From Lachnospiraceae bacterium (GTDB taxonomy: Bacteria; Bacillota; Clostridia; Lachnospirales; Lachnospiraceae), in assembly GCA_045127535.1 (NCBI GenBank), contig JBGVQN010000009.1, positions 54,786 to 118,785 on the forward strand: a stretch of 64,000 bases of DNA, written 5' to 3'. Shown piece after piece: positions 46,470 to 63,426 of this stretch (position 1 is the first letter of the stretch; every line of letters begins with the position of its first letter). The notes below the pieces were generated by a model. That model saw only the letters and a list, made by a program, of their open reading frames with translations, was not told where the DNA came from and made no database searches. Position numbers and translations under genes: made by a program.

Positions 46470-46515
46470 AGCAGTGCCAGATACATTGCCAAAAACCCAG
46501 CAGAAAGGACGCAAA

Positions 46516-47053: not shown

Positions 47054-47773
47054 ATGGATAATCGTCTGCTGTTGATAGAACAGGCTCAGGCGGGAGATAA
47101 GGCTGCAAGGGAATTGGTGGTCAGCACGAATTTAGGGCTGGTTTGGAGCATTGTCAAACGATTCACCGGCAGGGGATACGATGCAGAGGATTTGTTTCAG
47201 TTAGGGTGCATAGGATTGATCAAGGCTGTAGACCGGTTTGACAACAGCTTTGGAGTACAGTTTTCTACATATGCGGTTCCTATGATCACAGGAGAGATCA
47301 AGCGCTTTCTGCGGGACGACGGCATGGTTAAGGTCAGCCGCTCCATGAAAGAGCTGTCTTTTGCTGCAAAAAAAAAGGTAGAGGAATTTCAAAGTAAAGA
47401 GGGCAGAGACCCTACTATAGAGGAACTTTCCGCTCTGGTAGGGGTTTCAAGGGAAGAACTGGCAGCAGCCATGGAATCAGGGGCTGAGGTAGAAAGCCTG
47501 CAGCAGGTGATTTATCAGGGAGAGGGACAGGCGATTACCAGAATGGATCATTTAGAACAGGAGCGTGACGAGCAGGCAGAGCTGGTAGACCGTATGACCG
47601 TGTACCAGCTGGTAGAGGAATTGGAGGAAAATGAGCAGAAGCTGATCATCCTGCGCTTTTTCCTGGACCAGACTCAGAACCAGATCGCAGCTACCCTTGG
47701 AATCTCCCAGGTACAAGTCAGCCGTATGGAAAAAAGAATATTGAAAAAAATGCGGGAAAAAATCACTACATAA
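47054..47773 (+). CDS. sigF: sporulation sigma factor SigF
   Basis: Sigma-70 regions 2 to 4, with GLIKAVDRFD and QIAATLGISQVQVSRMEKR. The position after spoIIAA-spoIIAB fits. Confidence 0.85.
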   Translation: MDNRLLLIEQAQAGDKAARELVVSTNLGLVWSIVKRFTGRGYDAEDLFQLGCIGLIKAVDRFDNSFGVQFSTYAVPMITGEIKRFLRDDGMVKVSRSMKELSFAAKKKVEEFQSKEGRDPTIEELSALVGVSREELAAAMESGAEVESLQQVIYQGEGQAITRMDHLEQERDEQAELVDRMTVYQLVEELEENEQKLIILRFFLDQTQNQIAATLGISQVQVSRMEKRILKKMREKITT

Positions 47774-47997
47774 AGAATGAAAAGCAGCTGAATCAAATCC
47801 AGAAATTTCCAGCATACAAAATTTGTATTGGATAACACTATCTACAAAGAGTTCCAGTAATCATACTGGAATGGGCACCAGAAAATGCCGGAAGATCTGA
47901 AACGGAACTTTTTATAAAAAGTTCAGCAGGAGTGCTGGCAAATGATTTGGAAAAGCAATACATGCGTTTTCCTATATAGGTGCAGATTGGAGACACT

Positions 47998-48189
47998 ATG
48001 AGCAAACCTATGATTCGAACTGGATTGATAATTGCGTTGATTACAGTTATGATGCTGTGTGCATGGTACTTTCTGCAAAGCGGCAAAAAGGCAGTCTACA
48101 CAGATGCAGTTCTGGTGCAGAACAATGCTCAGGTAGCAGAGGAAACCAAAGATTGTTTTCTGCTGCAGGAGGATGATACTTCTATATGA
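47998..48189 (+). CDS. possible small membrane protein upstream of spoVAA
   Basis: A 63-aa protein with one TM helix. Its stop overlaps the spoVAA start. Confidence 0.3.
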   Translation: MSKPMIRTGLIIALITVMMLCAWYFLQSGKKAVYTDAVLVQNNAQVAEETKDCFLLQEDDTSI

Positions 48190-48806
48190 GTGAAACATTA
48201 TATTTGAAACTGGAGCAAAATCCACAAGTGACCGCAGATTCTGTCCATATTTCAGACATCAGCGAAACCTGGTGCAAGGATAAGCACATCTTAGCCGAGT
48301 GCAGGGCAGTAAAGGTAAAAAATCTGAATCCAGGTCCCAAAAGCAGAACCATTTACTCTGCAATGGAGCTTGTACAGATGATTCAGGAGTCAGTGGAGGA
48401 TGTAGAGGTAACGGTGCTTGGAGAGCAGGATATCATTATTTCCCGCCATCCCGGTGAACAATGCAATCCAGTGTGGGAGTGGTGCAAGACCATTGGCATA
48501 TCCCTGGTGATCTTTTTTGGCTCTGCCTTTGCCATTATGACCTTTAACAATGACGTAGGGGTAAAAGACGTATTTGACGAGCTGCATGTATGGGTAATGG
48601 GCAGCGCATCAGAAGGCTTGTCTGCTCTGGAAATATCGTATACAGTAGGACTTGCAGTGGGGATCCTGGTGTTTTATAACCATTTCCGTAAAAAGACCAG
48701 AATTTCCGATCCTACCCCTCTGGAAGTGGAGATGCGACAGTATGAAACAGACGTCAATACTGCCATCATTCAGGAGGATTCCAGATTAAAGAAGTCAGGC
48801 AGTTGA
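48186..48806 (+). CDS. spoVAA: stage V sporulation protein AA
   Basis: The product appears collinear with B. subtilis SpoVAA in a by-eye comparison (AIMTFNNDV, SPLEVEM). Confidence 0.8.
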   Translation: MSETLYLKLEQNPQVTADSVHISDISETWCKDKHILAECRAVKVKNLNPGPKSRTIYSAMELVQMIQESVEDVEVTVLGEQDIIISRHPGEQCNPVWEWCKTIGISLVIFFGSAFAIMTFNNDVGVKDVFDELHVWVMGSASEGLSALEISYTVGLAVGILVFYNHFRKKTRISDPTPLEVEMRQYETDVNTAIIQEDSRLKKSGS

Positions 48807-49092
48807 TGTGAGTCTGCCACACCTATTGTAAAGTAAGAAAATGTTCTGAAAAATCAGCTTTGTATCGAAAAAACTGATAGGGCACAAGCTTGAATGCAGA
48901 ACATCTATCCCAAAATAGGGATTCAATGAGGATAGAAGGAACAATATCAGTTGGCATTTGATCAAACGATATACAGCAGGCTCAAATGAAAGGATCATGC
49001 AATTGTGACTTACACACAGATGAGTGTAATGGTAATGAACAAGCAGATATTAAAAAACAGATACTTAAGTCTATATACAAAGGGGAGTGCAT

Positions 49093-49509
49093 ATGCGGTG
49101 GATAATACTTTGGCTGATAGGGGTGTCATCTGGACTGGTAACTTCTGCCGGTGTGTTTGCACTGATTACGGTAATTGGCATCATTCCAAGACTGGCAGGT
49201 AAGAGCCGGACAGCTTCACGTGTCCGTATTTATGAATGGGCCATCATTTTAGGCGGCGTACTTGGAAACCTGCAGTATCTTCTGGGTACGAAGCTTCCTG
49301 TGGGACAGGTGGGTCTTGGGATGTTTGGATTGGGATGCGGCATCTTTGTCAGCTGTCTGGTCATGTCTCTGGCAGAGACATTGGATGTATTCCCGATCAT
49401 GATCCGCCGAACCAGAATGAAGGTGGGACTGCCCTGGCTGGTGCTTGCATTTGCTTTGGGCAAAAGTGTAGGGGCATTTCTGTTTTTCTGGTATGGATGG
49501 CATGTGTAG
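49093..49509 (+). CDS. spoVAB: stage V sporulation protein AB
   Basis: The product appears collinear with B. subtilis SpoVAB in a by-eye comparison (VIGIIPRL..., FPIMIRR). An RBS, AGGGGAG, lies 5 nt before the ATG. Confidence 0.8.
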   Translation: MRWIILWLIGVSSGLVTSAGVFALITVIGIIPRLAGKSRTASRVRIYEWAIILGGVLGNLQYLLGTKLPVGQVGLGMFGLGCGIFVSCLVMSLAETLDVFPIMIRRTRMKVGLPWLVLAFALGKSVGAFLFFWYGWHV

Positions 49510-49545
49510 GCTGGTCTGATTAATAGATTAAGGTGATTTAAGAAT

Positions 49546-49590
49546 CAGACACTTCACAAAGCGTCCAGTAACGTGTTTTTCGTAATTGTC
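49546..49590 (+). repeat. solo right-terminus fragment of the repeat
   Basis: CAGACACTTCACAAAGCGTCCAGTAACGTGTTTTTCGTAATTGTC. Confidence 0.6.
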
Positions 49591-49623
49591 TATAAAAAAT
49601 AATATAATGAGAGGAGACACAGT

Positions 49624-50094
49624 ATGAATCAGCAGGAAAGCAAGCAGAAGCTTGCAGAAGAATACAACGCTTACATCAAAGCAGTCACACCCACATTCAG
49701 TACAGCCAAAAATATGTTTCGGGCTTTCTGGACAGGCGGTGTGGTCTGTGTCATTGGGCAGGCACTGAACAACCTGTTTACAGGCATGGGGCTGGAGAAA
49801 AAGGATGCGTCTGCCTGGACATTGCTGGTGCTGATCTTTGTGGCCATTGTACTGACTGGCTTTAATCTGTTCAGCAAGATTGCAAAGTATGCAGGTGCAG
49901 GCGTATTGGTGCCCATTACTGGTTTTGCCAATGGTGTGGCTTCCCCTGCCATAGAGTATAAGAAAGAGGGATGGGTGTTTGGCGTAGGCTGCAAGATCTT
50001 TACCATTGCAGGGCCGGTGATCTTGTATGGAATCATTACCAGCTGGGTGTTGGGGGTGATCTGTTGGGTGTTGCAGATGATGGGAGTGGCGTGA
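49624..50094 (+). CDS. spoVAC: stage V sporulation protein AC
   Basis: A SpoVAC/SpoVAEB-family membrane protein with GVLVPITGFANGVASPAIEYKKEG. An RBS, GAGAGGAG, precedes the start. Confidence 0.8.
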   Translation: MNQQESKQKLAEEYNAYIKAVTPTFSTAKNMFRAFWTGGVVCVIGQALNNLFTGMGLEKKDASAWTLLVLIFVAIVLTGFNLFSKIAKYAGAGVLVPITGFANGVASPAIEYKKEGWVFGVGCKIFTIAGPVILYGIITSWVLGVICWVLQMMGVA

Positions 50095-50402
50095 GGCTAC
50101 TCCTGTTTGCGTTTGCTGGTACATTTTTGGGGCATTATACAGCATAAATACAAAACAAAATGGCTCAAAAATATAAAATAAAACACATCAAAAAACCGGA
50201 TTTGCTGATGGTAATTACTGGTGGCAATATGGCATATACGAGACCGGATGGTGTGAAGATCATACCAATCGGGTGTCTGAAAGACTAGTAACAGGACAGA
50301 GGGAACTGGGTAAAATACGGAAAATGTGAAAAATGCAGAAAAAGTCGCTCATCTTTTTGTGATATACTTCAAAAAGTCGCTCATTTTTTTGTATATTGTA
50401 TA

Positions 50403-50508
50403 GGTAATTGCGGAACGGTATTCCATATCAGATTTGAGAAGTATTTGTAAGAAAATATTTTCTTACAGATACTTCTCAAAGCGTCCGTTCAGATGTTTCG
50501 TAATTACC
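50403..50508 (+). repeat. core-less copy of the repeat (left and right TIR fused into one long hairpin)
   Basis: GGTAATTGCGGAACGGTATTCCATATCAGATTTGAGAAGTATTTGTAAGAAAATATTTTCTTACAGATACTTCTCAAAGCGTCCGTTCAGATGTTTCGTAATTACC. The central 42 nt form a perfect palindrome. Confidence 0.75.
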
Positions 50509-51015
50509 TAATATTGTATAAAGAAGGGAGTGTGCGTATGGGCGAAATATATTTAAAACGTAAAGTGAATACGTTTTTGCTGAAGGATTATTTGAATGAA
50601 CCATAACTGCCTACAAGCCGTAGGCTGTATGAGATTGTATCTGTTAGCGGTTGCAGTTTTTATGAAAGACATGGCTTGCATAGAGCAGAAATGGCTGGTG
50701 GAGCTTGGCAAAAATGAATGATGTGCAGAAAAAATATAGATAAATGGTATTTTTTACAAAATTGTGCTATAATGAAAAAGGGTCATATATGAGCTATTTT
50801 GGTTCAAAAAGCAAAAAAAGGATAATATATTATCCTTATCAGCAGGAGGAAATATGTTTGAGCAGCTGAAATTTCCTAGTGAAATTGCAAAAGATGTTGC
50901 TGTAAAAGAAAAAAATGTCCATTTTAAAAAGATATAAAAATTTGTAGAGAACATAGGATCGTATTGATTGAAATGGAATCAATGAACCGACTAAAAAATG
51001 ATTTAAAAATGTTTT

Positions 51016-51160
51016 GACAAAAAATCCGTAAGATGCTATATTGTTTTTAGTTCAATAAGAGTCTGCCACCGGGTAGAAGATGCCAAAAGCATCCGTAAAC
51101 GTATCGTTAGGTCTGAGAAGATACGTTACGGATGCTTTTTTAGAGAAATCCTGCCAGGAG
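51016..51160 (+). promoter_or_regulatory. promoter plus structured leader with intrinsic terminator upstream of pnuC (candidate riboswitch/attenuator)
   Basis: TTGACA, 17 nt, then TATATT. A leader follows in which the small hairpin GATGC-caaaa-GCATC overlaps the left arm of a 17-bp terminator stem, GCATCCGTAAACGTATC...GATACGTTACGGATGC, followed by TTTTTT. Confidence 0.4.
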
Positions 51161-51197
51161 CGCTGCATGAAATATATTTCAGGAGTTGGAGGTAATT

Positions 51198-51884
51198 ATG
51201 CATATTGTGAAATCATTTCAGAATCTGAACAGATTAGAGAGGGGGTTATGGATCAGCTCGGTACTGGTATTGGTGATATCCTTTGGAATGAGCCCGAATC
51301 AGGATTATCTGACTCTGACAGCATCTTTGATTGGAGTAACTGCTTTGATATTTGTATCCAAAGGAGATGTACTGGGGCAGATGCTGACAGTTGGATTCAG
51401 CCTTTTTTATGCTGTGATTTCCTGGCGGTTCCGATATTATGGAGAAATGATTACGTATCTGTGTATGACAACACCCATTGCATTATTGTCAGTCATTACC
51501 TGGCTGCGCAATCCCTATTCCGAGCAAGAGGTAAAAGTGAATCATCTGACAAGCAAAATATGGGGCATATTGCTTGTATCTGCGGTATTGGTAACAGCAG
51601 TCTTTTATTGGATTTTAAAAGCCTTTGATACACCAAATCTGTTTTTCAGTACGGCTTCCATTGCCACCAGCTTTCTGGCTTCTGGTCTGATGATGCTGCG
51701 CAGTCCTTATTATGCAGTGGCATATGCGGCCAATGACATTGTACTGATTATATTGTGGGTTTTGGCAGCTGTTTCTGATATAATATATTTGCCAATGGTG
51801 CTGTGTTTTGGAATGTTTCTGCTCAATGATCTGTATGGATTTGTGAACTGGAACCGAATGAAGTGCAGGCAGCAGATGGAATAA
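51198..51884 (+). CDS. pnuC: nicotinamide riboside transporter PnuC-like
   Basis: A 7-8 TM protein of PnuC size and hydropathy. The C-terminus reads LNDLYGFVNW. The RBS GGAGG lies 5 nt before the ATG at 51198. Confidence 0.6.
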   Translation: MHIVKSFQNLNRLERGLWISSVLVLVISFGMSPNQDYLTLTASLIGVTALIFVSKGDVLGQMLTVGFSLFYAVISWRFRYYGEMITYLCMTTPIALLSVITWLRNPYSEQEVKVNHLTSKIWGILLVSAVLVTAVFYWILKAFDTPNLFFSTASIATSFLASGLMMLRSPYYAVAYAANDIVLIILWVLAAVSDIIYLPMVLCFGMFLLNDLYGFVNWNRMKCRQQME

Positions 51885-52221
51885 ACAAATAAAATGTGAG
51901 AAAGCAATTACAGCAGAGGAATGTGATTGTAAAAAATGTGAAAAAGTGTTTGCAGAATTGAAATCAGAATAAGAAAAAAAGGTGAATGGGTCTGTCAGTC
52001 TGAGAGGATTGGCAGGCTTTTTTATGCTATCTGGATAGTAAAAAAGCCGTCCTTGTATAAAAAATAGAATAGAAAGTGTGATAGGATTGAATAAAAGTGT
52101 AGAAAAAAATAAAAAGTATGCTATAATGAGAAAAAGAACATTTGTTTGGTCTGGATTATAAAAAAAGATAATTTCCACAAATAGGGTTTCTGACAGCAGG
52201 ACATAGAGATAGGAAAGAGGG

Positions 52222-52794
52222 ATGGAAATGGATTATGAAATACGCTACAGCCAACGTAAATCAGTTGGAATTGAGGTGACAAAGGAGGCAAAGGTGCTGG
52301 TCAGGGCGCCTTATGGCACATCGGTTAAGCAAATACAGTATTTTGTAGAAGCACATGCAGACTGGATCATAAAGCACAGACAAAAGGTACTGCAGCAGAT
52401 ACAGGCAGTGCAAACCAGAGAACCCATTGATGTTTTGGAGATCGAGCAGCTGGCACAGCAGGCAGCTAAGGTGATACCAGAGCGTGCTGCATATTTTGCA
52501 GGAGTCATGGGGGTTACCTATGGCAGGATCACCATACGCAATCAAAAGACCCGTTGGGGCAGCTGCAGCAGCAAAGGCAATCTGAATTTTAACTGTCTTT
52601 TGATGCTGGTACCGGCAGAGGTGTTGGATTATGTGGTAGTACATGAGCTGTGCCATCGAAAAGAGATGAATCACTCTCCCAGATTTTGGAGAGAGGTGGA
52701 GAAGGTGCTGCCCCGTTATAGAGAGCAGGAAAGATGGCTGAAGGAGCATGGCAGCACCATCATAAGGAGTGTGGACAGAAGCGGATCAGCGTAA
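52222..52794 (+). CDS. YgjP-like (DUF45/M48-related) zinc metallohydrolase
   Basis: A HELCHRKEMNHSPRFW zincin-like motif in the C-terminal half. Confidence 0.65.
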   Translation: MEMDYEIRYSQRKSVGIEVTKEAKVLVRAPYGTSVKQIQYFVEAHADWIIKHRQKVLQQIQAVQTREPIDVLEIEQLAQQAAKVIPERAAYFAGVMGVTYGRITIRNQKTRWGSCSSKGNLNFNCLLMLVPAEVLDYVVVHELCHRKEMNHSPRFWREVEKVLPRYREQERWLKEHGSTIIRSVDRSGSA

Positions 52795-52996
52795 GTAAGC
52801 CCTATGGATATAAAATAAGACCTATAGCTTTCGCGTAGAAAGAGGCTGATTACAATAAAGCAAAGAAATATTTGAAAAATTGGGTATGGCAGCTCTGATA
52901 AAGCGGGCATCAGACAGGTACATTGGCCATGAGATCTTAAAAAAGAAAGGTGCCGGGGAATAGACAGTATAAACGGATCAGGAGGAAAAGAGCAGC

Positions 52997-53419
52997 ATGC
53001 AGAAGGAAAAATTGATTTGTTGCACATATGATAAGGAAACATTGGCAGATTGCAAGTATGTTGTGGTGCTGTCCCACTATCAGGGACAGATCCTGTTAAG
53101 CAGGCATAAGGACAGAGCCACCTGGGAGACCCAGGGCGGTCATATTGAGCCAGGGGAAGCGCCCGTAGAGGCTGCAAGGCGTGAGCTGTATGAGGAATCC
53201 GGGGCTTTGGAGTATGAGCTGCAGTATCTGTGTGACTACCGGGCAGAGCATCCGGTGACCCGCAGGGGTGCCAATGGAGCAGTATTTGCAGCAGAGATCC
53301 ATACATTGGGGCCAATGCCGGAAAGTGAAATGGCAGAGGTCAGAACGTTTGATGTGCTGCCGGACAACCTGACCTATCCGGAGATCACACCGGTTTTATT
53401 TATGAAACTAGAAAGCTAG
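52997..53419 (+). CDS. NUDIX hydrolase
   Basis: A Nudix box reading GGHIEPGEAPVEAARRELYEESG. Confidence 0.75.
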   Translation: MQKEKLICCTYDKETLADCKYVVVLSHYQGQILLSRHKDRATWETQGGHIEPGEAPVEAARRELYEESGALEYELQYLCDYRAEHPVTRRGANGAVFAAEIHTLGPMPESEMAEVRTFDVLPDNLTYPEITPVLFMKLES

Positions 53420-53538
53420 GGAAAGATGCGGTTGCATGTTGGGAAAGCTGGAAAAAGGTTTTGGCGCAATGTGCAGCGTATCAGAAATGATGCCATAGAG
53501 CAAAGAAAAATCATAACGATAGAAACAGAGGAAACACA

Positions 53539-54312
53539 ATGGATGTGATAGATCAGCAGACTGCTGCAAATGCGGATGAAATTTTAGAAAAGGTATTTCG
53601 CCTGGTAGCCCTTCACAAATCAGGGGCACTTGGGGGAGAAAAGATGCCGGAGGACGAAAATCCAGGACTGGATCCGGCATCTAAGGAGAATTATATGTAC
53701 TTTACCTTACCAATGGCACTCAATTACCAGCGCAATTCTTATGTACTTTGGCAGTGTGCCAATGCAATGTACAAGGAGGCGCAGGACAGAGTGGTATTTA
53801 ACAGTGAGGCGGTTTGCAGGATGTCCATAGAGCAGCTGCGACAGATCCTGGTACAGTATAAGGTGGCACTGCAGCCCAATAAGCAGCCGGTCATTTGGCA
53901 GAAGCTGTGTGAGACCATTTCCAATCAGTTTGACGGAGATATCCGCCGCCTGTTTGTACAGCAGGGATATTCAGCTGCAGGTGTAAGAGAGTATATTGCA
54001 GGTCATAAAAAGGACTTTCCCTATTTGGGCGGCAACAAGATCTGCAATTACTGGCTGTATGTGCTGGAGCAGTATACAGATATGCGCTTTGTAGACAGGG
54101 AAGCCATTACGGTGGCACCGGATACCCATGTGATACAGGCCAGCATCCGTCTGGGGCTTTTGACGGAGGAAGAGGGCAGGCAGTCTCAGGTGCAGGTACT
54201 GGCAGCAGACAGGTGGAAAGCGCTGTTACAGGGGACCGGGCTGGTGCCCATTGATGTACATACGCCCATGTGGCTGTGGAGCAGGGGTGGATTCAAAGTG
54301 CCATTACAGTAG
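53539..54312 (+). CDS. hypothetical protein (possibly HhH-GPD/queuosine-salvage-like fold)
   Basis: A 257-aa protein with no certain motif. A helical HhH-like segment reads VAPDTHVIQASIRLGLL. Confidence 0.35.
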   Translation: MDVIDQQTAANADEILEKVFRLVALHKSGALGGEKMPEDENPGLDPASKENYMYFTLPMALNYQRNSYVLWQCANAMYKEAQDRVVFNSEAVCRMSIEQLRQILVQYKVALQPNKQPVIWQKLCETISNQFDGDIRRLFVQQGYSAAGVREYIAGHKKDFPYLGGNKICNYWLYVLEQYTDMRFVDREAITVAPDTHVIQASIRLGLLTEEEGRQSQVQVLAADRWKALLQGTGLVPIDVHTPMWLWSRGGFKVPLQ

Positions 54313-54480
54313 GTATCATTTCCATCCTGAAAAATGGAAAGGCCAAGGCGCTGAAAATATCTACTTTAGCCAAGCTGTATGCAGCGCTGGACTGCCAGCC
54401 GGGAGATCTTCTGGAATACAGAAAAAAAGAAGCAGAAAAATCAGTTTTGCAAAAATGAATTCAAGAGAAAGAGGCATAAT

Positions 54481-55233
54481 ATGACTGAACTGGAACTGAC
54501 ACAGCAGATGGCATACAGGGTAAAGGCCTGCAGCGCCATTATGTTAGAGGCCAAACATATAGAAAAGGACACCATCGCCAAAGAGGGGCGTGCCAATTTT
54601 GTAACAGCATATGACAAAAAAGTACAGGAAAGACTGTATCAGGATCTGTTAGAGCTGCTGCCGGAAGCAGAATTTCTGGGAGAAGAAGGGGAGCAGGGAC
54701 AGATCGATGTATCTAAGGGCTATGTATATATTGTAGACCCAATTGATGGCACCACCAATTTTATGAAGGGGTACCAGATGAGTGCTATTTCTGTAGCGCT
54801 GGCCAAAGATGGTCAGGTGATCTGCGGTGTAGTGTATAATCCTTATCTGGATGAACTGTTTACTGCAGCTAAGGGACAGGGGGCATTTTTAAATGGAGTC
54901 TCCATTCATGTATCCAAAGCACCATTATCAGAGGGACTGGTATTGTTTGGGACTTCCCCATATCATGAAAGCCTGGCAGAAAAGTCCTTTCAGACTGCAT
55001 ATCAATATTTTAAGCAGGCACTGGATGTGCGCAGAAGTGGTTCTGCAGCTTTGGATCTGTGCAGCATTGCAGCAGGCAGGGCAGAACTGTTTTTTGAATT
55101 GATTTTGCAGCCTTGGGATTATGCAGCTGGTTCCCTGCTGATCCAGGAAGCAGGAGGGGTGGTTACAGATATGGAGGGTAGTGAAATTATCCTGGATGGT
55201 CCATGCAGTATACTGGCAACAAATGGTGTGTAA
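54481..55233 (+). CDS. inositol monophosphatase family protein (SuhB-like)
   Basis: The IMPase motifs FLGEEG, IVDPIDGTTNF and WDYAAG. An RBS, AAAGAGG, precedes the ATG at 54481. Confidence 0.75.
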   Translation: MTELELTQQMAYRVKACSAIMLEAKHIEKDTIAKEGRANFVTAYDKKVQERLYQDLLELLPEAEFLGEEGEQGQIDVSKGYVYIVDPIDGTTNFMKGYQMSAISVALAKDGQVICGVVYNPYLDELFTAAKGQGAFLNGVSIHVSKAPLSEGLVLFGTSPYHESLAEKSFQTAYQYFKQALDVRRSGSAALDLCSIAAGRAELFFELILQPWDYAAGSLLIQEAGGVVTDMEGSEIILDGPCSILATNGV

Positions 55234-55348
55234 GGAGGAAAGGTACAATAACTTGGGATTGATTGCAGCCGGGAATTGTGATAGTATGTATACGTTGGTG
55301 TTTGTACAAGATGGAAATACCATTTATGTAGATTGGGGAGAAAATACA

Positions 55349-56704
55349 GTGAAGATTATCATTATCGGTTGTGGAAAAGTAGGCCAGACACTAGCTGTTG
55401 TGTTAAGTGAGGAAAACAATGATGTAACAGTTGTGGATCAGCAGAGAAGCAAAATGGAGGTTTTGTGTAACCAGTATAATATCATTGGTGTGGTAGGCAA
55501 TGGTGCCAGCTATGCAGTACAAAAGGAGGCAGGCGTAGAGCAGGCAGATCTGCTGATCGCAGTAACGGGTTCTGACGAACTGAATCTGTTAAGCTGTCTG
55601 ATAGCCAAGAAAGCCGGAAACTGTAATACCATAGCCAGAGTTCGTAAACCGGAATACAATGAGCAGCTGGATTTGATAAAAGAAGAATTAGGACTTGCCA
55701 TGGTTATTAATCAGGAGTGGGCTTCTGCTCAGGAAGTTTCCAGAGTGTTAAAGTTCCCTTCTGCCATTAAGATCGATACATTTGCCAAGTCCAGAGTGGA
55801 AATATTGAAATACCGGGTACCCGCTGGATCCATCCTGGCAGGAATGACCTTGGAGGAAATGCATTCCAGATTAAAGTGTAACATTCTGATCTGTGCTGCG
55901 GAGCGGGACGGCCAGGTGCGTATTCCAAAAGGTGATTATGAGATCCAGGAAAAGGATGTGATTTCTATAGTAGCTACAGCAGGAGATGCCAATGATTTCT
56001 TTAAGAAAATTGGTGTTGCTTCTGCAAAAGTGAAAAATATCATTATGGTAGGAGGCGGCGAAATAGCCTATTATCTGGCCAAAATGCTTCTGCCTCTGGG
56101 AATCCGTGTGAAAATCATTGAAAAGAATCTGTCCAGATGTGAAGAACTTGCCAGACTGCTGCCAAAAGCAACCATTATTAATGGGGATGGTACAGACAAG
56201 CAGCTACTGCTGGAAGAAGGGATTCAGGACTGTGATTCCTTTGCAGCACTGACAGATTTTGACGAAGAAAATATTTTGATTTCCCTATACTTTAAGGGGC
56301 TTGGAAAGAAAAAGTCTATTACCAAAATCAACCGCATTGCCTTTGATGAGGTAGTAAGAGAACTGGATCTGGATACCGTATTTTATCCTAAAAATATTAC
56401 AGCAGAAAATATTATACGATATGTAAGGGCTATGAAACAGTCCTTTGGCAGCAATGTGGAGACAGTTCATCGCCTGGAGAATAATGTAGAAGCCCTGGAG
56501 TTTGTGGTAGATGAAAAGGCTGATTTTACAGATATTGAGCTGCAGAAACTGTCTTTAAAGGATACCATATTGCTGGCTTACATTGGAAGAAAAGGAGAAC
56601 ATATTATACCAAGAGGTAATGATGTACTGAAAACAGGAGATACTGTGATTGTGGTGACCACCAAAACCGGTTTCCATGACATATCAGATATTTTCCAGAA
56701 GTAA
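55349..56704 (+). CDS. trkA: Trk system potassium uptake protein TrkA (two RCK/NAD-binding domains)
   Basis: VKIIIIGCGKVG is a Rossmann motif. A second one reads IIMVGGGEIAYYLA. GTG start, with the RBS GGGGAG 7 nt upstream. Confidence 0.75.
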   Translation: MKIIIIGCGKVGQTLAVVLSEENNDVTVVDQQRSKMEVLCNQYNIIGVVGNGASYAVQKEAGVEQADLLIAVTGSDELNLLSCLIAKKAGNCNTIARVRKPEYNEQLDLIKEELGLAMVINQEWASAQEVSRVLKFPSAIKIDTFAKSRVEILKYRVPAGSILAGMTLEEMHSRLKCNILICAAERDGQVRIPKGDYEIQEKDVISIVATAGDANDFFKKIGVASAKVKNIIMVGGGEIAYYLAKMLLPLGIRVKIIEKNLSRCEELARLLPKATIINGDGTDKQLLLEEGIQDCDSFAALTDFDEENILISLYFKGLGKKKSITKINRIAFDEVVRELDLDTVFYPKNITAENIIRYVRAMKQSFGSNVETVHRLENNVEALEFVVDEKADFTDIELQKLSLKDTILLAYIGRKGEHIIPRGNDVLKTGDTVIVVTTKTGFHDISDIFQK

Positions 56705-56747
56705 GAAAAAGTATGGGAAGCTCCTTTCTTTGAACGGGAACAATTTA

Positions 56748-56989
56748 GGCAATTGCGAAACTCTTTACCGGACGTTTTGCGAAGTGCTTGTCAGAAAATA
56801 TTTTCACGCGACGTATCATTTATGATACGTTTGGCGCGCTCTCGCTTCGGTAAAAACGCAGTGGTACTAATAAATTTTGCACCTGTGGCACAAAATTTAA
56901 AGTACTGGCGTTTTTAAGAGCCTGCTTAGAAAACATGTTCTGACAGACATTTCACAAAGCTGGTACGAAACCTAGTTTCGCAATTATCT
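56748..56989 (-). repeat. MITE-like palindromic intergenic repeat, full copy, reverse orientation
   Basis: It is the reverse complement of the 39634-39904 type. The termini are GGCAATTGCGAAACTC ... AGTTTCGCAATTATC. The central hairpin is TTTTGCACCTGTGGCACAAAA. Confidence 0.8.
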
Positions 56990-57120
56990 AAGCATGAACA
57001 ACAAAAGTACTCGTAGATCTTTCTCTGTGTTTATGAATAATGGGAAAGAGGACGACAAACACGGATATTCTGGAAATATGCGGCAGAAAAATACGAAGAA
57101 CCTTGAGGTTTTGGTGAACT

Positions 57121-58560
57121 ATGAATTATGGAATGATTATCTATATATTGGGATGTGTGTTGAGTTTTGAAGCAGTATTTCTGTTTCCTTCCTGCCTGGT
57201 AGCTGTCATATACAGAGAACAGGCTGGCTGGGGATGTTTTTGGGCTGCAGCATTGTGTGCGGCAGTTGGTTTTTTGCTGACCAGAAAGAGACCCAAAAAC
57301 CGGGCAATTTATGCCAAGGAAGGATTTGTGGTAGTGGCGTTCAGCTGGATTGTACTGAGTATTTTTGGCGCGCTGCCTTTTGTGTTTTCGGGCGCCATTC
57401 CTTCTATGGTAGATGCATTGTTTGAAACGGTTTCTGGTTTTACCACCACGGGAGCCAGCATTTTGTCAGATGTGGAAGCTTTGCCTAAATGTATTCAGTT
57501 TTGGCGCAGCTTTACCCACTGGATCGGCGGTATGGGTGTGCTGGTATTTGTGATGGCAGTCATCCCCCTGTCAGGAGGCAACAGTGTGTATCTGATGAAG
57601 GCAGAAAGCCCTGGCCCCAGTGTGGAAAAACTGGTGCCCAATGTAAAGCAGACTGCATTTATTTTATATGCCATGTACATTGTCATTACGGTCATTGAGT
57701 TTGTGATTCTGGTGCTGGGAAAAATGCCGGTATTTGACAGTCTGCTGCTGACCTTTGGTACAGCAGGTACCGGTGGCTTTGGCATCAAAAATGACAGTCT
57801 GGGCAGCTATACAGATTTCCAGCAGATCGTCATTACCATCTTTATGATCTTGTTTGGTATTAATTTTAATGCATATTACTTTATCTATCGAAAGAAGTGG
57901 AAAGATGCATGCCGTATGACAGAGGTCAGGGCATATCTGCTGATCATCCTCACTGCCATTGTGCTGATCAGTATGAATACCAGAGGTATGTTTGCGTCCC
58001 TGTTCCAGACTGTCAAGCACAGTGCCTTTCAGGTGGCATCCATTATTACGACCACTGGATATTCTACAGTGGATTTTGACCTGTGGCCGGCCTTTTCCAA
58101 AACCATTCTGGTCGTGTTGATGTTTATTGGGGCCTGTGCCGGAAGCACCGGCGGCGGTATGAAGGTCTCCAGATTTATCATATGGCTGAAAGCAGTTGTA
58201 AAGGAATTGGATTATGTCATCCATCCCCGCAATATTCGTCAGCTCAGTATGGATGGAAAACCCATTGAGCGGCCCACACTGCGGTCAGTCAATGTATTTT
58301 TGTTTACGTATATTTTGATATTTGCGTTGAGCCTGCTGTTGATTTCCCTGGAAAATAAGGATATGACCACCAATTTTACAGCAGTTGCAGCTACGCTGAA
58401 CAATATTGGCCCGGGACTTTCTTTGGTAGGTCCCATGGGGAACTTTGGGGTATTTTCAGACTGGTCAAAGCTGGTGCTGATCTTTGATATGCTGGCAGGC
58501 AGACTGGAGCTGTTCCCCATGCTGATTTTATTTTCACCAAACACCTGGAAAAGAAGGTAA
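57121..58560 (+). CDS. trkH: Trk system potassium transporter TrkH
   Basis: Four MPM repeats with GFTTTGAS and GTGGFG selectivity-filter-like glycines, and GGGMKVSRF. Confidence 0.85.
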   Translation: MNYGMIIYILGCVLSFEAVFLFPSCLVAVIYREQAGWGCFWAAALCAAVGFLLTRKRPKNRAIYAKEGFVVVAFSWIVLSIFGALPFVFSGAIPSMVDALFETVSGFTTTGASILSDVEALPKCIQFWRSFTHWIGGMGVLVFVMAVIPLSGGNSVYLMKAESPGPSVEKLVPNVKQTAFILYAMYIVITVIEFVILVLGKMPVFDSLLLTFGTAGTGGFGIKNDSLGSYTDFQQIVITIFMILFGINFNAYYFIYRKKWKDACRMTEVRAYLLIILTAIVLISMNTRGMFASLFQTVKHSAFQVASIITTTGYSTVDFDLWPAFSKTILVVLMFIGACAGSTGGGMKVSRFIIWLKAVVKELDYVIHPRNIRQLSMDGKPIERPTLRSVNVFLFTYILIFALSLLLISLENKDMTTNFTAVAATLNNIGPGLSLVGPMGNFGVFSDWSKLVLIFDMLAGRLELFPMLILFSPNTWKRR

Positions 58561-58651
58561 AGCCTTGCAACCGTCCGAGATGATAGAAAAGCTATAGGTA
58601 TAAGACCTGCAGCTTTCTATAGAAAACCCAAGTGATTGAGAAACGTTGGAT

Positions 58652-58693
58652 CAGACGCTTCACAAAACGTCCGTCATGTGTTTCACAATTACC
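58652..58693 (+). repeat. solo right-terminus fragment of the repeat
   Basis: CAGACGCTTCACAAAACGTCCGTCATGTGTTTCACAATTACC. Confidence 0.6.
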
Positions 58694-58708
58694 TGTGGGA
58701 ACAGTTAA

Positions 58709-58948
58709 ACAATTGCGAAGCGGTATTCAATATCAGCTTTGGGAAGTATCTGTAAGAAAATGTTTTCTAAGCAGGACTCTTGAAAACGCCGGTACTTTAA
58801 ATTTTGCGCCACAGGCGCAAAATTTATTAGTACCGCTGCGTTTTCACCGAAGCGAGAGCGGGTCAAACGTATCATAAATAATACGTCGCGTAAAAACATT
58901 TTCTTACAGATACTTCCCAAAGCGTCCGTTCACGTGTTTCGCAATTGC
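58709..58948 (+). repeat. MITE-like palindromic intergenic repeat, full copy
   Basis: The termini are CAATTGCGAAGCGG ... GTGTTTCGCAATTGC. The central hairpin is TTTTGCGCCACAGGCGCAAAA. TIR, CTGTAAGAAAATGTTTTC / AAAACATTTTCTTACAG. Confidence 0.85.
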
Positions 58949-58983
58949 TTAATGGAAAAAGTATTTGAAAGGAACAAAAGGTC

Positions 58984-59889
58984 ATGAGCAGAAAGGTATT
59001 GGTAACTGGAGGAACTGTATTTGTCAGCAGGTATGTGGCAGAGTATTTTGCCGGTCAGGGAGATCAGGTATATGTATTAAACCGCAACAGCAGACCCCAG
59101 TCTCCCGGTGTGACTTTGATTGAGGCAGACCGGAGTCAGTTAGGAGATGTGTTAAAGGGATATGACTTTGATGCAGTATTGGATATTACTGCATATACAA
59201 AAGAGGACGTAGCACATCTGCTGGATGCGTTGGACAGTGTGGGACAGTATATTTTCATCAGCTCCAGTGCAGTATATCCGGAAACACTGCCCCAGCCTTT
59301 TACTGAGGAGCAGGTATGCGGCCCCAATGCAGTATGGGGTGCATATGGTACCAATAAATTGGAGGCTGAACAGTACCTGTCAGAGCGGGTACCGCAGGCG
59401 TACATTCTCAGACCTCCTTATCTGTATGGCCCTATGCAGAATCTGTACCGGGAAGGACTGCCCTTTGACTGCGCAGAACAGAACCGTCCCTTTTACCTGC
59501 CGGGAGATGGCAGCATGCCGCTGCAGTTTTTCCATGTAGAGGATCTGTGCCGGTTTATGGAATGTCTGTTGGACAAGCAGCCAGAGCAGCGGATCTGGAA
59601 TGTGGGAAATCCAGAGATCGTGGATATCCGTCAGTGGGTAACCTTGTGCTATGAAGCAGTAGGTGTCACGCCGGAGTTTGTATCAGTAGATCAGACCCAT
59701 GGACAGAGAAGCTATTTCTGCTTCCATGATTATGGATATCAGCTGGATGTGACAAAGCAGCAGGCGCTGATGCCGGAGGTAAAGCCTCTGGCAGAGGGAT
59801 TAAAGGAATCCTATGCATGGTATCAGGTACATAAGGATTCTGTAGTGAAAAAACCTTATCTGGAATATATTGATACAGTGTTGAGATAA
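58984..59889 (+). CDS. NAD-dependent epimerase/dehydratase family protein (SDR)
   Basis: The N-terminus VLVTGGTVFVSRYVAEYF is a GxxGxxG-like Rossmann motif. A YxxxK context is present. Confidence 0.7.
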   Translation: MSRKVLVTGGTVFVSRYVAEYFAGQGDQVYVLNRNSRPQSPGVTLIEADRSQLGDVLKGYDFDAVLDITAYTKEDVAHLLDALDSVGQYIFISSSAVYPETLPQPFTEEQVCGPNAVWGAYGTNKLEAEQYLSERVPQAYILRPPYLYGPMQNLYREGLPFDCAEQNRPFYLPGDGSMPLQFFHVEDLCRFMECLLDKQPEQRIWNVGNPEIVDIRQWVTLCYEAVGVTPEFVSVDQTHGQRSYFCFHDYGYQLDVTKQQALMPEVKPLAEGLKESYAWYQVHKDSVVKKPYLEYIDTVLR

Positions 59890-59897
59890 TCAGTCAT

Positions 59898-59940
59898 CCC
59901 CATATCCCCTTTTCAAAAGAGGGGATATGGGGATTTTTAT
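59898..59940 (+). terminator. rho-independent terminator
   Basis: A perfect 13-bp stem, CCCCATATCCCCT / AGGGGATATGGGG, with a 9-nt loop, then ATTTTTAT. Confidence 0.7.
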
Positions 59941-60475
59941 GTGATGCGTCCATGGCAGGAGCGGATCAGACAGGAGCATGGTACAAGATCATCCATTGCT
60001 TTTGTATGTATTTCCTGTTACACTGTACTTGCAGCTGCCTGCTGTGTGGTAAGCAGCACAGTGCGCCAGGGTGTCCCAAAGCGTATTCTGCGGCAGTCTG
60101 TATACGCAGGTTCGAGTCCTGCCCGAAAGAGTCCGGGGAAAGCATGCTTTTATTGCCCAAGCCGGATTCAGATCGGCCAAGTGGTTTTGGATAGCCGGAA
60201 ACGGCAGCAAGTATTTATGATCAAACCCTAAATCATCAGGTATGGGCATTTCCTTCTGTCGCTGACAGAGGGGATGTCCATGCCACGGAATATCTGCCTT
60301 GTCCTAAGGAGGATACCGGATGGGAAATGGGCAGGAGCGCCTGACTGCAAATACTCTCTGTGGGAGATCCTGCAAAGAGCTTGCAGCAGGCTTCTGCTGC
60401 GGCTCTCATTCTGAATCCTTTGGCCGCAGATATTCCGGAAAGATGAGGGATCAGATGAAGTGGGGAGGAACCAAG

Positions 60476-61576
60476 ATGAAGACAATTATTACTGAAAACC
60501 AAAGAGGTCTTTTATTTAAAAATGGCAGACTGATCAAATTATTAGAGCCGGGAGCCTATCATACCTTTGGAAACAGCCGCATTGAGGTGGTCGATACCAA
60601 TCAGGAGGTCTGTTCAGACAGCTGTGATCTGGAAAGTCTGCTGCAGAATTCTGACATTGCTGCCCGGACTGTGGCAGTAGAGGTGTCTGATGAACAGCTG
60701 GCCATTCATTTTGTCAATGGCAATTTCAGGGAGTGTCTCACTGCAGGAAAGTATGCCTTTTGGTCTGTCTCAGAAAAGCATACTTTTTTATTGGCAGATA
60801 TTTCTGCGCCTGAGGTGTCTGAGGAGATTCCGGAGTACATCCTCCATTGTGTGCCGGAGCGCCATTACACCAAGGTTTCTGTAGAAGAATACCAAAAAGC
60901 CAGATTGTATTACAATAAACGCTTTGTGCGGCTGTTGGATGCAGGTACCTATTATTTTTGGAAGAACCACATTCAGGTGGATGCAGAGCTTGTGGATACC
61001 AGACTGATCCAGATGGACATAACCGGTCAGGAGGTATTGACCAAGGACAAAGTAGCAGTGCGGATCAATTTTGTGTGCCATTACCGGATCACAGATTATG
61101 TCAAGATCGTAACAGAAATAGATGATTTTAAGGGACAGATGCATGTGGCAGCTCAGCTGGCGCTTCGGGAGTACATAGGCAAGTATAGCATTGATGAGAT
61201 CCTGGATAACAAGGAGCAGCTGTCTCAGTATGTATTTGAAAAGTTAAAGGAGAAGGAAAATCAGTTTTACATTGAGCTGGCAGATGCAGGCATTCGGGAT
61301 ATTATCCTGCCGGGAGAGGTGCGGGAAATCATGAACACAGTCCTGCTGGCAGAAAAGCGTGCCCAGGCCAATGTGATCACCCGCAGGGAAGAAGTGGCGT
61401 CCACCCGTTCTCTTTTAAATACAGCCAGACTGATGGATGAAAACAAGACCCTGTATCAGTTAAAGGAGTTAGAGTATATTGAACGTATCTGCGAAAATGT
61501 AGGCAGCATCCATGTCACCGGCGGCGGAGATCTGCTGACCCAGCTTATGAGCATGATACAGAAACCCAAAGAATAA
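60476..61576 (+). CDS. SPFH/band-7 domain protein with triplicated N-terminal beta-hairpin segment
   Basis: The RBS GGGGAGGAA lies 5 nt before the ATG. Three tandem copies of an x-G-x-L-x-x-L-x-PG-x-Y-x-F segment occur, then an SPFH core reading VAVRINFVCHYRI...AQLALREYIGKYSIDEIL. Confidence 0.6.
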   Translation: MKTIITENQRGLLFKNGRLIKLLEPGAYHTFGNSRIEVVDTNQEVCSDSCDLESLLQNSDIAARTVAVEVSDEQLAIHFVNGNFRECLTAGKYAFWSVSEKHTFLLADISAPEVSEEIPEYILHCVPERHYTKVSVEEYQKARLYYNKRFVRLLDAGTYYFWKNHIQVDAELVDTRLIQMDITGQEVLTKDKVAVRINFVCHYRITDYVKIVTEIDDFKGQMHVAAQLALREYIGKYSIDEILDNKEQLSQYVFEKLKEKENQFYIELADAGIRDIILPGEVREIMNTVLLAEKRAQANVITRREEVASTRSLLNTARLMDENKTLYQLKELEYIERICENVGSIHVTGGGDLLTQLMSMIQKPKE

Positions 61577-61606
61577 AAATACCAGGTGTGTCCTGACAAA
61601 ATCCAT

Positions 61607-61662
61607 AAACAGGATGAATTTGTAAACTCGTTTACAGATTCATCCTGTTTCTTGCTTTTCTG
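61607..61662 (+). terminator. rho-independent terminator
   Basis: A 20-bp stem, AAACAGGATGAATTTGTAAA / TTTACAGATTCATCCTGTTT, then CTTGCTTTTCTG. Confidence 0.55.
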
Positions 61663-61680
61663 AGATCTTAGAACCTCTGC

Positions 61681-61751
61681 GATTTCACCGAAGTGGGAGC
61701 GAGTCAAACGTGTCCTTACGACACGTTGCGTCAAACAATCCACTCATTGCC
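61681..61751 (+). repeat. degenerate partial copy of the repeat
   Basis: TTCACCGAAGTGGGAGCGAGTCAAACGTGTCCTTACGACACGTT...CATTGCC is a core-to-right-end remnant. Confidence 0.45.
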
Positions 61752-61908
61752 TGACATCACAAATGCAGCTTCTATGTATAAATTTCCTGTATGAAACCAT
61801 ACTAGCAGTAAAGCAGTGATAGTTTTCCTGGCTGCAGCAAATGGATTTGATTTGCTGCAGGGGGGAAATGGAGATAGCTGCATATAGTGCAGCGGAAAAC
61901 GAGGTTGT

Positions 61909-62919
61909 ATGGGAAGACAGGGAAAAGCCAGTTTAAAATTTGAAAATCCGCCTGGGATCATTTCTACAGGATGTGTGGCAGGAAAAAAAGAGGGAGAGGG
62001 GCCCTTGGGCAGCCTGATCGATGAGATCGTGACAGATCCAATGGCAGGAAAAAACACCTGGGAAGAAGCAGAAAGTGAGCTGCAGACCAGAGCAGCACAG
62101 CATGCCATTGAAAAAGCAGGTATTTCTGCAAATCGTATCCGGTATTTGTTTGCAGGAGATCTGCTGGGGCAGAGCATTGCGTCTACCTTTGGATTGATGG
62201 ACATGAATGTGCCTTTGTTTGGATTGTATGGAGCATGTTCTACCATGGGGGAATCCCTGGCTCTTGGCAGTGCATTTGTCAATGCAGGCTATGGAGAGTT
62301 TGTCATGTGTGTGACCTCCAGTCATTTTGCCAGTGCGGAAAAGCAGTTTCGGTTCCCACTGGATTATGGGAATCAGCGACCCTTTGCAGCGACCTGGACA
62401 GTCACCGGCTCCGGTGCAGTGATCCTGGGGCAAAATGGGGGCAATGTATGTGTAAAGGGCATTACCACGGGGAAAATCGTAGATTATGGCATCCGTGATT
62501 CCATGAATATGGGGGCAGCCATGGCTCCTGCAGCTGCTGAGACCATACACCGCAATCTTCTGGATTTTGGTGTGGATCCTGGTTATTACGATAAAATTAT
62601 TACAGGTGATTTGGGAGAAGTAGGGCAGCAGGCGCTGATCGATCTGTTGGCCAAAAAGAATTGTGACATTTCTGACTGCCATATGGACTGCGGTATAGAG
62701 ATATTTGACGGAAAGACCCAGGATACCCATGCAGGAGGCAGCGGATGCGGCTGTGCAGCAGTGACCCTGTGCGCCAAGCTGATCAGGAAATTAGAGGATA
62801 AGGAATGGAGAAGGATCCTGTTTGTACCCACAGGCGCTTTGCTGTCTCCCACCAGCTTTAATGAGGGACAGAATATTCCGGGCATTGCCCATGCAATTAT
62901 ATTAGAAAGAAGACAGTAA
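61909..62919 (+). CDS. spoVAD: stage V sporulation protein AD
   Basis: A thiolase-like SpoVAD reading ISTGCVAGKKEGEGPLG...GLYGACSTMGESLALG. Confidence 0.85.
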   Translation: MGRQGKASLKFENPPGIISTGCVAGKKEGEGPLGSLIDEIVTDPMAGKNTWEEAESELQTRAAQHAIEKAGISANRIRYLFAGDLLGQSIASTFGLMDMNVPLFGLYGACSTMGESLALGSAFVNAGYGEFVMCVTSSHFASAEKQFRFPLDYGNQRPFAATWTVTGSGAVILGQNGGNVCVKGITTGKIVDYGIRDSMNMGAAMAPAAAETIHRNLLDFGVDPGYYDKIITGDLGEVGQQALIDLLAKKNCDISDCHMDCGIEIFDGKTQDTHAGGSGCGCAAVTLCAKLIRKLEDKEWRRILFVPTGALLSPTSFNEGQNIPGIAHAIILERRQ

Positions 62920-62978
62920 AAAAGAATGGTCTATGCATATTTTGTCTGATGATGAATCATGGTGCCGGGAGGTAAGAT

Positions 62979-63335
62979 ATGGATTATGTAAAAGCATTTG
63001 TGGTAGGAGGACTGATCTGCTGTTTGGTACAGCTGCTGATGGATAAGACAAAGCTGATGCCGGGAAGAATTATGGTACTGCTGGTAGTCAGCGGGTGTAT
63101 CCTGGGGGCGATAGGAATTTATGAGCCGTTCCTGGAATGGGCAGGAGCGGGAGCGTCTGTCCCCCTTTTGGGATTCGGGAATACTCTGTGGAAAGGAATG
63201 AAAGAAGCAATTGATGCAGACGGGGCTCTTGGATTGTTTAAAGGTGGCTTTACAGCCAGTGCAGTGGGAATTTCAGGGGCACTTATATTTGGGTATCTGG
63301 CATCCCTCGTTTTCTCTCCTAGGATGAAAGGATAG
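62979..63335 (+). CDS. spoVAE: stage V sporulation protein AE (SpoVAEB-type)
   Basis: A 118-aa membrane protein with GASVPLLGFGNTLWKG. It follows spoVAD. Confidence 0.75.
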   Translation: MDYVKAFVVGGLICCLVQLLMDKTKLMPGRIMVLLVVSGCILGAIGIYEPFLEWAGAGASVPLLGFGNTLWKGMKEAIDADGALGLFKGGFTASAVGISGALIFGYLASLVFSPRMKG

Positions 63336-63370
63336 ACTGCATGAGACAAATGCAGGATACGATCAAAGAA

Positions 63371-63426
63371 CAGACAGTACAATCTGCAATTTCCTATATT
63401 GCAGAGTGCATTGTCTGTTTTTTATT
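63371..63426 (+). terminator. rho-independent terminator after spoVAD-spoVAE
   Basis: A long hairpin, ACAGACAGTACAATCTGCAAT...ATTGCAGAGTGCATTGTCTGT, then TTTTTTATT. Confidence 0.6.

Follow-up and report, generated by a model that had tools for sequence, protein, structure and literature searches.

In Bacillus subtilis the spoVA genes form a single sigma-G-dependent operon, spoVAA-AB-AC-AD-AEb-AEa-AF, located downstream of spoIIA. What, then, has happened to this operon in a Lachnospiraceae bacterium (assembly GCA_045127535.1) in which spoVAA-AB-AC and spoVAD-AEb stand 11.8 kb apart? The first-pass annotation of the 64-kb stretch in question (hereafter the window, whose positions serve as coordinates throughout; features lie on the + strand unless stated otherwise) had noticed repeat copies around the intervening DNA and tentatively attributed the division to a repeat-associated insertion or rearrangement. 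Our comparison with related species leads to a different view: The split is probably an inherited, lineage-wide variant of gene order at the spoVA locus, in which the repeats are passengers and not the cause.

The divided spoVA locus and its counterparts in relatives

Gene identities and coordinates were established from an open reading frame (ORF) listing combined with Pfam scans. The left half of the locus comprises spoVAA (48186-48806; PF12164), spoVAB (49087 or 49093 to 49509; PF13782), and spoVAC (49624-50094; PF03862), the right half spoVAD (61909-62919; PF07451, E 5e-141) and spoVAEb (62979-63335; PF03862); each of the five scores far over the respective gathering score. The left half is situated directly downstream of spoIIAA (46047-46469; Pfam STAS), spoIIAB (46474-47046; HATPase_c_2), and sigF (47054-47773; Sigma70 r2/r3/r4), which is the position the locus occupies in Bacillus subtilis, in Bacillus generally, and in many Clostridia. 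From the end of spoVAC to the start of spoVAD we count 11,815 nt (61909 minus 50094), which hold nine unrelated genes, all on the + strand, together with three strong terminators and one sigma-70-type promoter. The ORFs, Pfam assignments, and coordinates thus confirm the separation as it was originally described.

For the comparison with other genomes we used 80 species-representative loci of GTDB Lachnospiraceae (L009-L088), which were collected by a SpoVAD scan, and closer relatives taken from a protein collection along with their contigs. A tblastn search of the 80 representatives detected no gene of the intervening block near spoVAD, and this first suggested an insertion unique to the window; the closer metagenome and NCBI relatives overturned that idea.

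The left-hand side of the split recurs in loci L097-L101 (SpoVAC 86-92% identity), which share the order sigF-small ORF-spoVAA-AB-AC and then continue with non-spoVA genes, including Exo_endo_phos, HD, HTH, and MatE (opposite strand) genes, variable genes, pnuC, DUF6487, and a giant GH81 protein. When searched by blastn with full repeat copies, these loci showed no repeats; the only trace was a terminus-like fragment between spoVAB and spoVAC in L097-L099. Both sides can be followed in a more distant relative represented by L105 (SpoVAC 72%) and L090 (SpoVAD 83%), which overlap with 96.5% nucleotide identity over 7.1 kb: Joined, they yield spoVAA-AB-AC, a gap of about 12.9 kb, and spoVAD-AE. 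The cargo of this gap consists of peptidase A24, FHA, PP2C, protein kinase, a small ORF, Big_13, and a giant GH81 protein, and no repeats were found in it.

The right-hand side is preserved in two further relatives. On a 74.6-kb contig of GCA_052830565.1 (L089; SpoVAD 91%) the order is GH64-HAD-YgjP-NUDIX-unknown-three extra small genes-IMPase-TrkA-TrkH-epimerase-SPFH-spoVAD-spoVAEb, and in GCA_965343145.1 (L107; SpoVAD 94%) it is TrkA-TrkH-DUF7657-epimerase-SPFH-spoVAD-spoVAEb. The SPFH gene thus lies directly 5' of spoVAD in both (89-90% amino acid identity), and blastn with the repeats found none of them in either block. Consequently, the trk-epimerase-SPFH neighbourhood and the SPFH/spoVAD junction predate the species concerned and do not depend on the repeats. 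In the nearest outgroups (L010, L011, and L013; SpoVAD 70-72%) all five spoVA genes are contiguous, and relative to this canonical order the operon is interrupted between spoVAC and spoVAD. Because the split is shared by relatives that lack repeats at the corresponding junctions (GCA_052830565.1, GCA_965343145.1, L097-L101, and L105 with L090), the simplest reading is that it predates this species group and that the repeats arrived later; such relatives are what the first-pass annotation had itself named as refuting evidence, and the synteny comparison thus contradicts a recent, repeat-associated origin in this genome.

The course of events that we favor would be as follows. The spoVAA-AB-AC-AD-AEb operon would have broken between spoVAC and spoVAD in the ancestor of this genus-level group, after which spoVAD-spoVAEb would have persisted as an autonomous two-gene unit with a terminator and a sigma-G/sigma-F-type promoter of its own (P2), while a 63-aa ORF and spoVAA-AB-AC would have remained downstream of sigF with their own conserved forespore-like promoter (P1). 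The intervening stretch would be subject to high gene turnover, its content being species-specific, with remnants of lost genes in the present genome and with housekeeping genes that would carry their own sigma-70-type promoters and terminators. The repeats would have spread through the spacers of this genome and of one sister genome only after the split.

Palindromic repeats and the contents of the interval

The repeats belong to one multi-copy, non-coding, palindromic family, whose members measure about 250 nt and have long inverted repeats at their ends; the window contains four full copies and at least six fragments; blastn with full copies marks ten places. A full copy folds as a single long hairpin (−118 kcal/mol, z −14.3 for the copy at 58701-58960). 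Within the spoVA region, a right-terminus fragment occupies the spoVAB/spoVAC spacer (49546-49593), and a "core-less" copy whose two ends are joined as a long hairpin lies at 50406-50512 (no strand assigned; fold of 50398-50518, −50.4 kcal/mol, z −10.3). A full inverted copy separates trkA from trkH (56745-56991, − strand), a terminus fragment identified by repeat-finding and alignment is found in the trkH/epimerase spacer (58640-58690), the full copy at 58701-58960 (blastn, alignment) precedes the epimerase gene, and a degenerate core fragment is located between the SPFH-gene terminator and P2 (61668-61751, of which 61668-61714 by blastn and the rest by alignment). Outside the spoVA region, blastn places lie at 4756, 7663, 8800-9040, 39193, and 39656-39915. 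Each of the three full + strand copies terminates 20-35 nt upstream of a gene start. Additionally, the spoVAA-spoVAB spacer (48807-49086) measures 280 nt compared with 5-170 nt in relatives and contains a stretch, AAAATCAGCTTTGTATCG, that resembles the left arm of the repeat and may be another decayed copy.

These positions bear on the proposal that a recent repeat-mediated insertion or rearrangement placed the 11.8-kb block into a contiguous sigma-G operon of this genome. In its favor, the gap has a repeat fragment close to each end (50406-50512 and 61668-61751), the spoVAB/spoVAC spacer holds another, and half of the repeat places of the window fall within 49.5-61.8 kb. The fragments named as boundaries are real and belong to one family; calling the block bounded by repeats is selective, however, as copies also occur inside the block and elsewhere in the window, including ordinary distant spacers at 8.8 kb and 39.7 kb. 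The neighbourhoods concerned are repeat-free in related species: The copy between trkA and trkH is missing at this junction in L089 and L107, the fragment at 61668-61751 has no counterpart in the homologous spacer of the same two loci, and the surroundings from spoVAC to pnuC lack repeats as well. The fragment at 49546-49593 has a homologue at the same site in L097 and L099 (SpoVAC 92%) and no counterpart in L100, L101, or L105. To the right of the 50406-50512 repeat, the window continues with sequence homologous to what relatives have after spoVAC, so that this repeat does not mark a synteny breakpoint; the left repeat remains inside spoVAC synteny, and the junctions of the block are repeat-free in relatives, which is not the pattern of a repeat-flanked insertion. 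We regard this proposal as largely refuted and its being correct as very improbable.

The situation in GCA_052830565.1 nevertheless indicates that such elements can coincide with breakpoints in this group. In this genome, spoVAC stands alone after infB-rbfA-nrnA-truB-ribF-rpsO-pnp, downstream of spoVAD (L092, 9716-10471), with a full repeat copy directly 5' of the relocated gene; in the window, L097, and L099 the position upstream of spoVAC is occupied by a repeat-terminus fragment. It is plausible that recombination between repeat copies could have moved spoVAC, a suggestion that concerns GCA_052830565.1 and not the window. At the start of its spoVAD contig, GH64 and a HAD hydrolase precede the block instead of spoVAA-AB, and the idea that spoVAC alone had been excised could not be confirmed there. 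Apart from the window, the repeat family is present in GCA_052830565.1 and in none of the other related loci sampled.

The contig might also have been mis-joined across repeat copies so that the two halves would not truly be 11.8 kb apart. Short-read contigs of the same species do break exactly at repeats: The first base of L001, L002, and L004 lies 82 nt ahead of the epimerase gene, and L093-L095 end inside the 50406-50512 hairpin. Such a mis-join is nonetheless hardly credible, given that the remnants and the pnuC leader described below follow spoVAC as they do in repeat-free L097-L101, that the order trkA-trkH-epimerase-SPFH-spoVAD is the same in L089 and L107, and that the join between SPFH and spoVAD is spanned by six independent contigs (L001-L006).

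The repeats appear similar to small intergenic elements of the miniature inverted-repeat transposable element (MITE) or repetitive extragenic palindrome (REP) type that settle in spacers. Correia, RUP, BOX, and REP are palindromic intergenic repeats of this kind in bacteria. Like them, the repeats of the window are about 250 nt long, non-coding, and multi-copy, carry long inverted repeats at their ends, fold as an extremely stable hairpin, are confined to intergenic positions, occur in truncated and end-only versions, and break short-read assemblies. Unlike the elements listed, the family has no match in Rfam, which was scanned at gathering thresholds with the entire window and at E<=1 with 47.7-64 kb and where the hairpins gave only spurious microRNA models; it was seen in just two of the related genomes sampled. 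A partner transposase or a target-site duplication was not identified within the 64 kb, no search of the flanks for duplications having been made.

Turning to the interval itself, its first 1.1 kb after spoVAC are non-coding and show homology, in the same order as in relatives, to an HD-domain gene, an HTH gene, and the leader of pnuC (51005-51141). The HD-domain remnant (50623-50732) and the remnant of the 5' region of the HTH gene (50744-50915) were detected by blastn with 70-78% identity to L097, L098, and L100, in which both genes are intact 3' of spoVAC. Next comes a near-consensus sigma-70 promoter of pnuC (TTGACA-N17-TATATT with TG; 51014-51042); promoter and conserved leader with its terminator hairpin (51014-51145) share 80-86% nucleotide identity with the pnuC leaders of L097, L098, and L101. 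The approximately 95 nt 3' of the promoter hold a small hairpin (CUGCCACCGGGUAG) followed by a strong terminator, whose 14-nt loop GUUAGGUCUKAGAA (K = G/U, the one variable position) is kept in four species while the flanks diverge. The leader has no Rfam match even at E<=1 (scan of 47.7-64 kb), and it is a candidate for an unclassified riboswitch or attenuator of a PnuC-family transporter. The pnuC ORF runs from 51186, with a likely ATG start at 51198, to 51884 (PF04973); its product is 77-79% identical to PnuC of L097, L098, and L101, and the gene is followed by an intrinsic terminator (51988-52019).

The remaining genes of the block, assigned by Pfam unless noted otherwise, are a YgjP-like gene (52222-52794), a NUDIX gene (52997-53419), a gene for a 257-aa protein without Pfam match (53539-54312), an inositol-monophosphatase-family (IMPase) gene (54379-55233), trkA (ORF from 55181, likely GTG start at 55349, end at 56704), trkH (57121-58560; PF02386), a gene for an NAD-dependent epimerase (58984-59889) with a terminator of 18-bp stem (59896-59934), and an SPFH/Band-7 gene (60320 or 60476 to 61576) with a terminator of 20-bp stem (61607-61650; −25.3 kcal/mol, z −7.2). 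The 257-aa protein belongs to a widespread uncharacterized family: A search of the protein collection gave 3416 homologues (E<=1e-10), of which the best 120 are 65-86% identical and 225-261 aa long.

Could this block have entered the operon by horizontal transfer, as a genomic island or mobile element? The content between spoVAC and spoVAD differs greatly among species, the segment from NUDIX to SPFH is missing upstream of spoVAD in L102-L104, and islands of gut Firmicutes are reported to carry spoVA genes (PMC6907783). The block itself does not look like an island, however: Pfam scans of its nine genes and of three further ORFs revealed no integrase, transposase, recombinase, or conjugation domains, and a transfer RNA scan for integration sites found none. 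The coding part has a guanine-cytosine (GC) content of 0.40-0.49 compared with 0.43-0.49 in the flanks and hence does not deviate in composition; the sole AT-rich stretch (50.0-51.5 kb, GC 0.36) is mostly non-coding (pnuC starts at 51186). The cargo consists of housekeeping genes with their own promoters and terminators, and the block proteins have diverged from those of GCA_052830565.1 (75-93% amino acid identity) about as far as SpoVAD and SpoVAEb have (91-92%), as vertical descent predicts. Neither a near-identical copy of the block in unrelated taxa nor a version bordered by attachment sites and an integrase in a relative has so far been seen. We accordingly give the island scenario little chance and retain an inherited split with turnover of the interval as the probable explanation.

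Promoters and terminators of the two halves

A divided operon raises the question of how its second half is expressed, and the initial proposal had held that spoVAD-AE would need a promoter of its own. The B. subtilis sigma-G consensus, GHATR-N17/18-CATXHTA, served as the basis of our scans of this Lachnospiraceae host; from it we derived the strict motif GnATR-N17/18-CATnnTA, for which shuffled sequences give a chance expectation of 1.5 matches per strand in 64 kb. The sole strict match on the + strand of the window is a predicted sigma-G-type promoter upstream of 61909, P2 (GTATA-N17-CATACTA, GTATAAATTTCCTGTATGAAACCATACTA; 61776-61804), whose −10 element ends 104 nt upstream of the spoVAD ATG and which has strong terminators upstream of it. 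When the regions upstream of spoVAD from the window, L089, L102, L103, L090, and L009, which follow three different upstream genes, are aligned, G(T/C)ATA-N17-18-CATA(C/T)TA is the only conserved block; the P2 motif is present in L107 as well, so that it is conserved in six relatives. Among the sampled family members, the strict motif occurs within 200 nt upstream of 8 of the 42 detached spoVAD loci (shuffles 0.22, maximum 2) and the relaxed motif upstream of 18 (3.7 expected), compared with none and four, respectively, of 40 loci with contiguous spoVAC-spoVAD (4.4 expected for the relaxed motif). As a positive control, 16 of 47 loci had the strict motif just 3' of sigF and before the first spoVA gene. 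To the extent that sequence can tell, spoVAD-spoVAEb is thus predicted to have its own conserved forespore promoter of the sigma-G type, and the proposed need for one finds its counterpart in P2. The unit is closed by a terminator hairpin with a T-run after spoVAEb (63365-63423; −28 kcal/mol, z −7.5).

The left half would be served by P1 (GCATA-N17-AACACTA; 47812-47840), a candidate forespore-type promoter between sigF and the first downstream ORF. A strict match upstream of spoVAA is absent from the window, and P1 is the only conserved relaxed match there; its sequence is identical in L093-L101, or carries one to three spacer differences (L100, L101). Between P1 and spoVAA lies a conserved 63-aa ORF (47998-48189), whose stop overlaps the spoVAA start (ATGA) and whose counterparts of 63-74 aa are called as genes in L093-L101 and L105 and which every close relative examined possesses. 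This ORF appears to be translationally coupled to spoVAA; its N-terminus looks hydrophobic by eye, and no Pfam family is on record for it.

The terminators also speak to the idea that the intervening genes are part of an extended sporulation operon and are co-transcribed or co-regulated with spoVA, for instance to supply the forespore with K+ uptake or NAD salvage. The genes share one strand, a search for terminators revealed no strong one immediately 3' of spoVAC, and the cargo in other lineages often comprises transporters for cations or metabolites (P-type ATPases, FeoB, MatE). This is offset by the near-consensus sigma-70 promoter before pnuC and by the intrinsic terminators after pnuC, the epimerase gene, and the SPFH gene, which make a single transcript across the block unlikely; the long hairpins of the repeats would add further barriers to read-through. 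Furthermore, the cargo is not conserved among lineages, and the TrkA/TrkH genes of GCA_052830565.1 have neither repeats nor a spoVAC nearby. An extended operon is for these reasons a poor prospect, and two separate spoVA units within an inherited split remain our preferred reading.

Two features of the wider surroundings may be mentioned here: A whole-window Rfam scan identified a T-box leader (RF00230; 101.6 bits) at 36044-36271, and spoVAEb of GCA_965343145.1 is followed, at a distance of about 3.4 kb, by a JetABCD (Wadjet) defence operon (L107, 14808-21011).

The spoVAC/spoVAD junction across the family and in known systems

Is the separation peculiar to this group? We classified the junctions of the spoVA genes in the 80 Lachnospiraceae species loci. 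At spoVAC/spoVAD, the genes are adjacent in 40 loci, separated by 2.3-9.7 kb in 11, and without any spoVAC within at least 3 kb (mostly 10 kb) in 25, with four loci uninformative; the junction is thus broken in 36 of the 76 informative loci. Breaks at the remaining spoVA junctions are very rare: The spoVAD/spoVAE pair is adjacent in 75 loci (gap in one, partner absent in three, one uninformative), spoVAA/spoVAB is adjacent in 18 with no case of a break or an absent partner (two uninformative), and spoVAB/spoVAC is adjacent in 18 (gap in one, spoVAC absent downstream in one, 11 uninformative), a further 21 loci having no spoVAB upstream (no spoVAA/AB detected). The cargo of the spoVAC-spoVAD gaps is heterogeneous and includes MatE with an unknown 520-aa protein (mouse-gut clade), FeoB with a P-type ATPase, a cation P-type ATPase, alpha-galactosidase, and an AAA-ATPase/PD-(D/E)XK protein. 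Lachnotalea sp. AF33-28 and Hungatella are examples of cultured relatives whose locus is split. In a neighbour-joining tree of SpoVAD, non-contiguous loci appear in at least four clades, each with contiguous sisters.

On this basis one may tentatively ask whether spoVAC/spoVAD is a recurrent breakpoint and hotspot of gene turnover in Lachnospiraceae, with at least four independent breaks, each detached pair having gained or retained its own forespore promoter and the gap having been refilled with unrelated cargo, often membrane transporters. We consider this generalization possible and yet rather doubtful. If it were true, channel subunit C and the D-Eb pair would need no co-transcription, and it would suggest either that some feature of the junction favors insertion or that selection favors separate control of C and D-Eb. 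Neither a split spoVA operon in Lachnospiraceae nor a recurrent break at this junction was described in any paper that our literature searches returned.

Several observations weigh against an inherited, lineage-wide split. In L102-L104 (SpoVAD 94%) the YgjP-like gene directly abuts spoVAD, which means that the segment from NUDIX to SPFH was gained or lost within the group, recently in some lineage. GCA_052830565.1 has spoVAC on the spoVAD contig, yet about 51 kb away and in another context, and GCA_965343145.1 has the two spoVA halves on different contigs, so that the halves are known to lie close together (about 12-13 kb apart) only in the window and in the species of L105 and L090. Most relatives are metagenome bins or short contigs. 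The SpoVAD tree is a single-protein neighbour-joining tree without support values, which renders the number of independent breaks provisional. P1 and P2 are sequence predictions, and P1 fits the relaxed consensus only. Finally, five of the ten blastn repeat places in the window fall within 49.5-61.8 kb, a mild enrichment that larger spacers tentatively explain.

The SpoVA subunits C, D, and Eb form one membrane complex (PMC9186386). Evidently, these three core subunits need not share one operon. C stands apart from D-Eb in half of the Lachnospiraceae species sampled, and the main value of the present split is as one example of this family-wide tendency; the view of how the SpoVA channel works is unchanged by it. 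For annotation, spoVAD-spoVAEb of this group is best handled as a forespore transcription unit of its own, and a spoVAC missing beside spoVAD should not be taken for gene loss. The conserved P2 motif offers a ready test of sigma-G promoter recognition in a family rich in uncultured members.

Compared with B. subtilis, the window contains the families AA-AB-AC-AD-AEb in the same order, after spoIIAA-AB-sigF and with forespore-type promoter motifs; it differs in the 11.8-kb interruption between AC and AD, the predicted two transcription units, the lack of AEa and AF, and the extra 63-aa ORF coupled to spoVAA. In Clostridioides difficile, spoVAC-AD-AE (CD0773-0775) is a tricistronic sigma-G operon (PMC3789822). 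Both systems have a sigma-G-type promoter for spoVA genes (predicted in the window) and adjacent AD-AE; while one promoter before spoVAC serves all three genes in C. difficile, spoVAC and spoVAD-AE of the window would each need their own, and unlike the spoVAC-AD-AE operon the window has spoVAA and spoVAB in addition. Mobile spoVA modules are exemplified by spoVA2mob on a Tn1546-like element in Bacillus and by island GI175 of Roseburia intestinalis, which carries SpoVAEb, SpoVAD, and an HTH gene and no SpoVAC (PMC6907783). Like GI175, the window shows that in Lachnospiraceae the spoVAD-spoVAEb unit can be separate from spoVAC; unlike the mobile modules, its pair bears no sign of a mobile element, is the only copy in the window, and has diverged to an extent that fits vertical inheritance.

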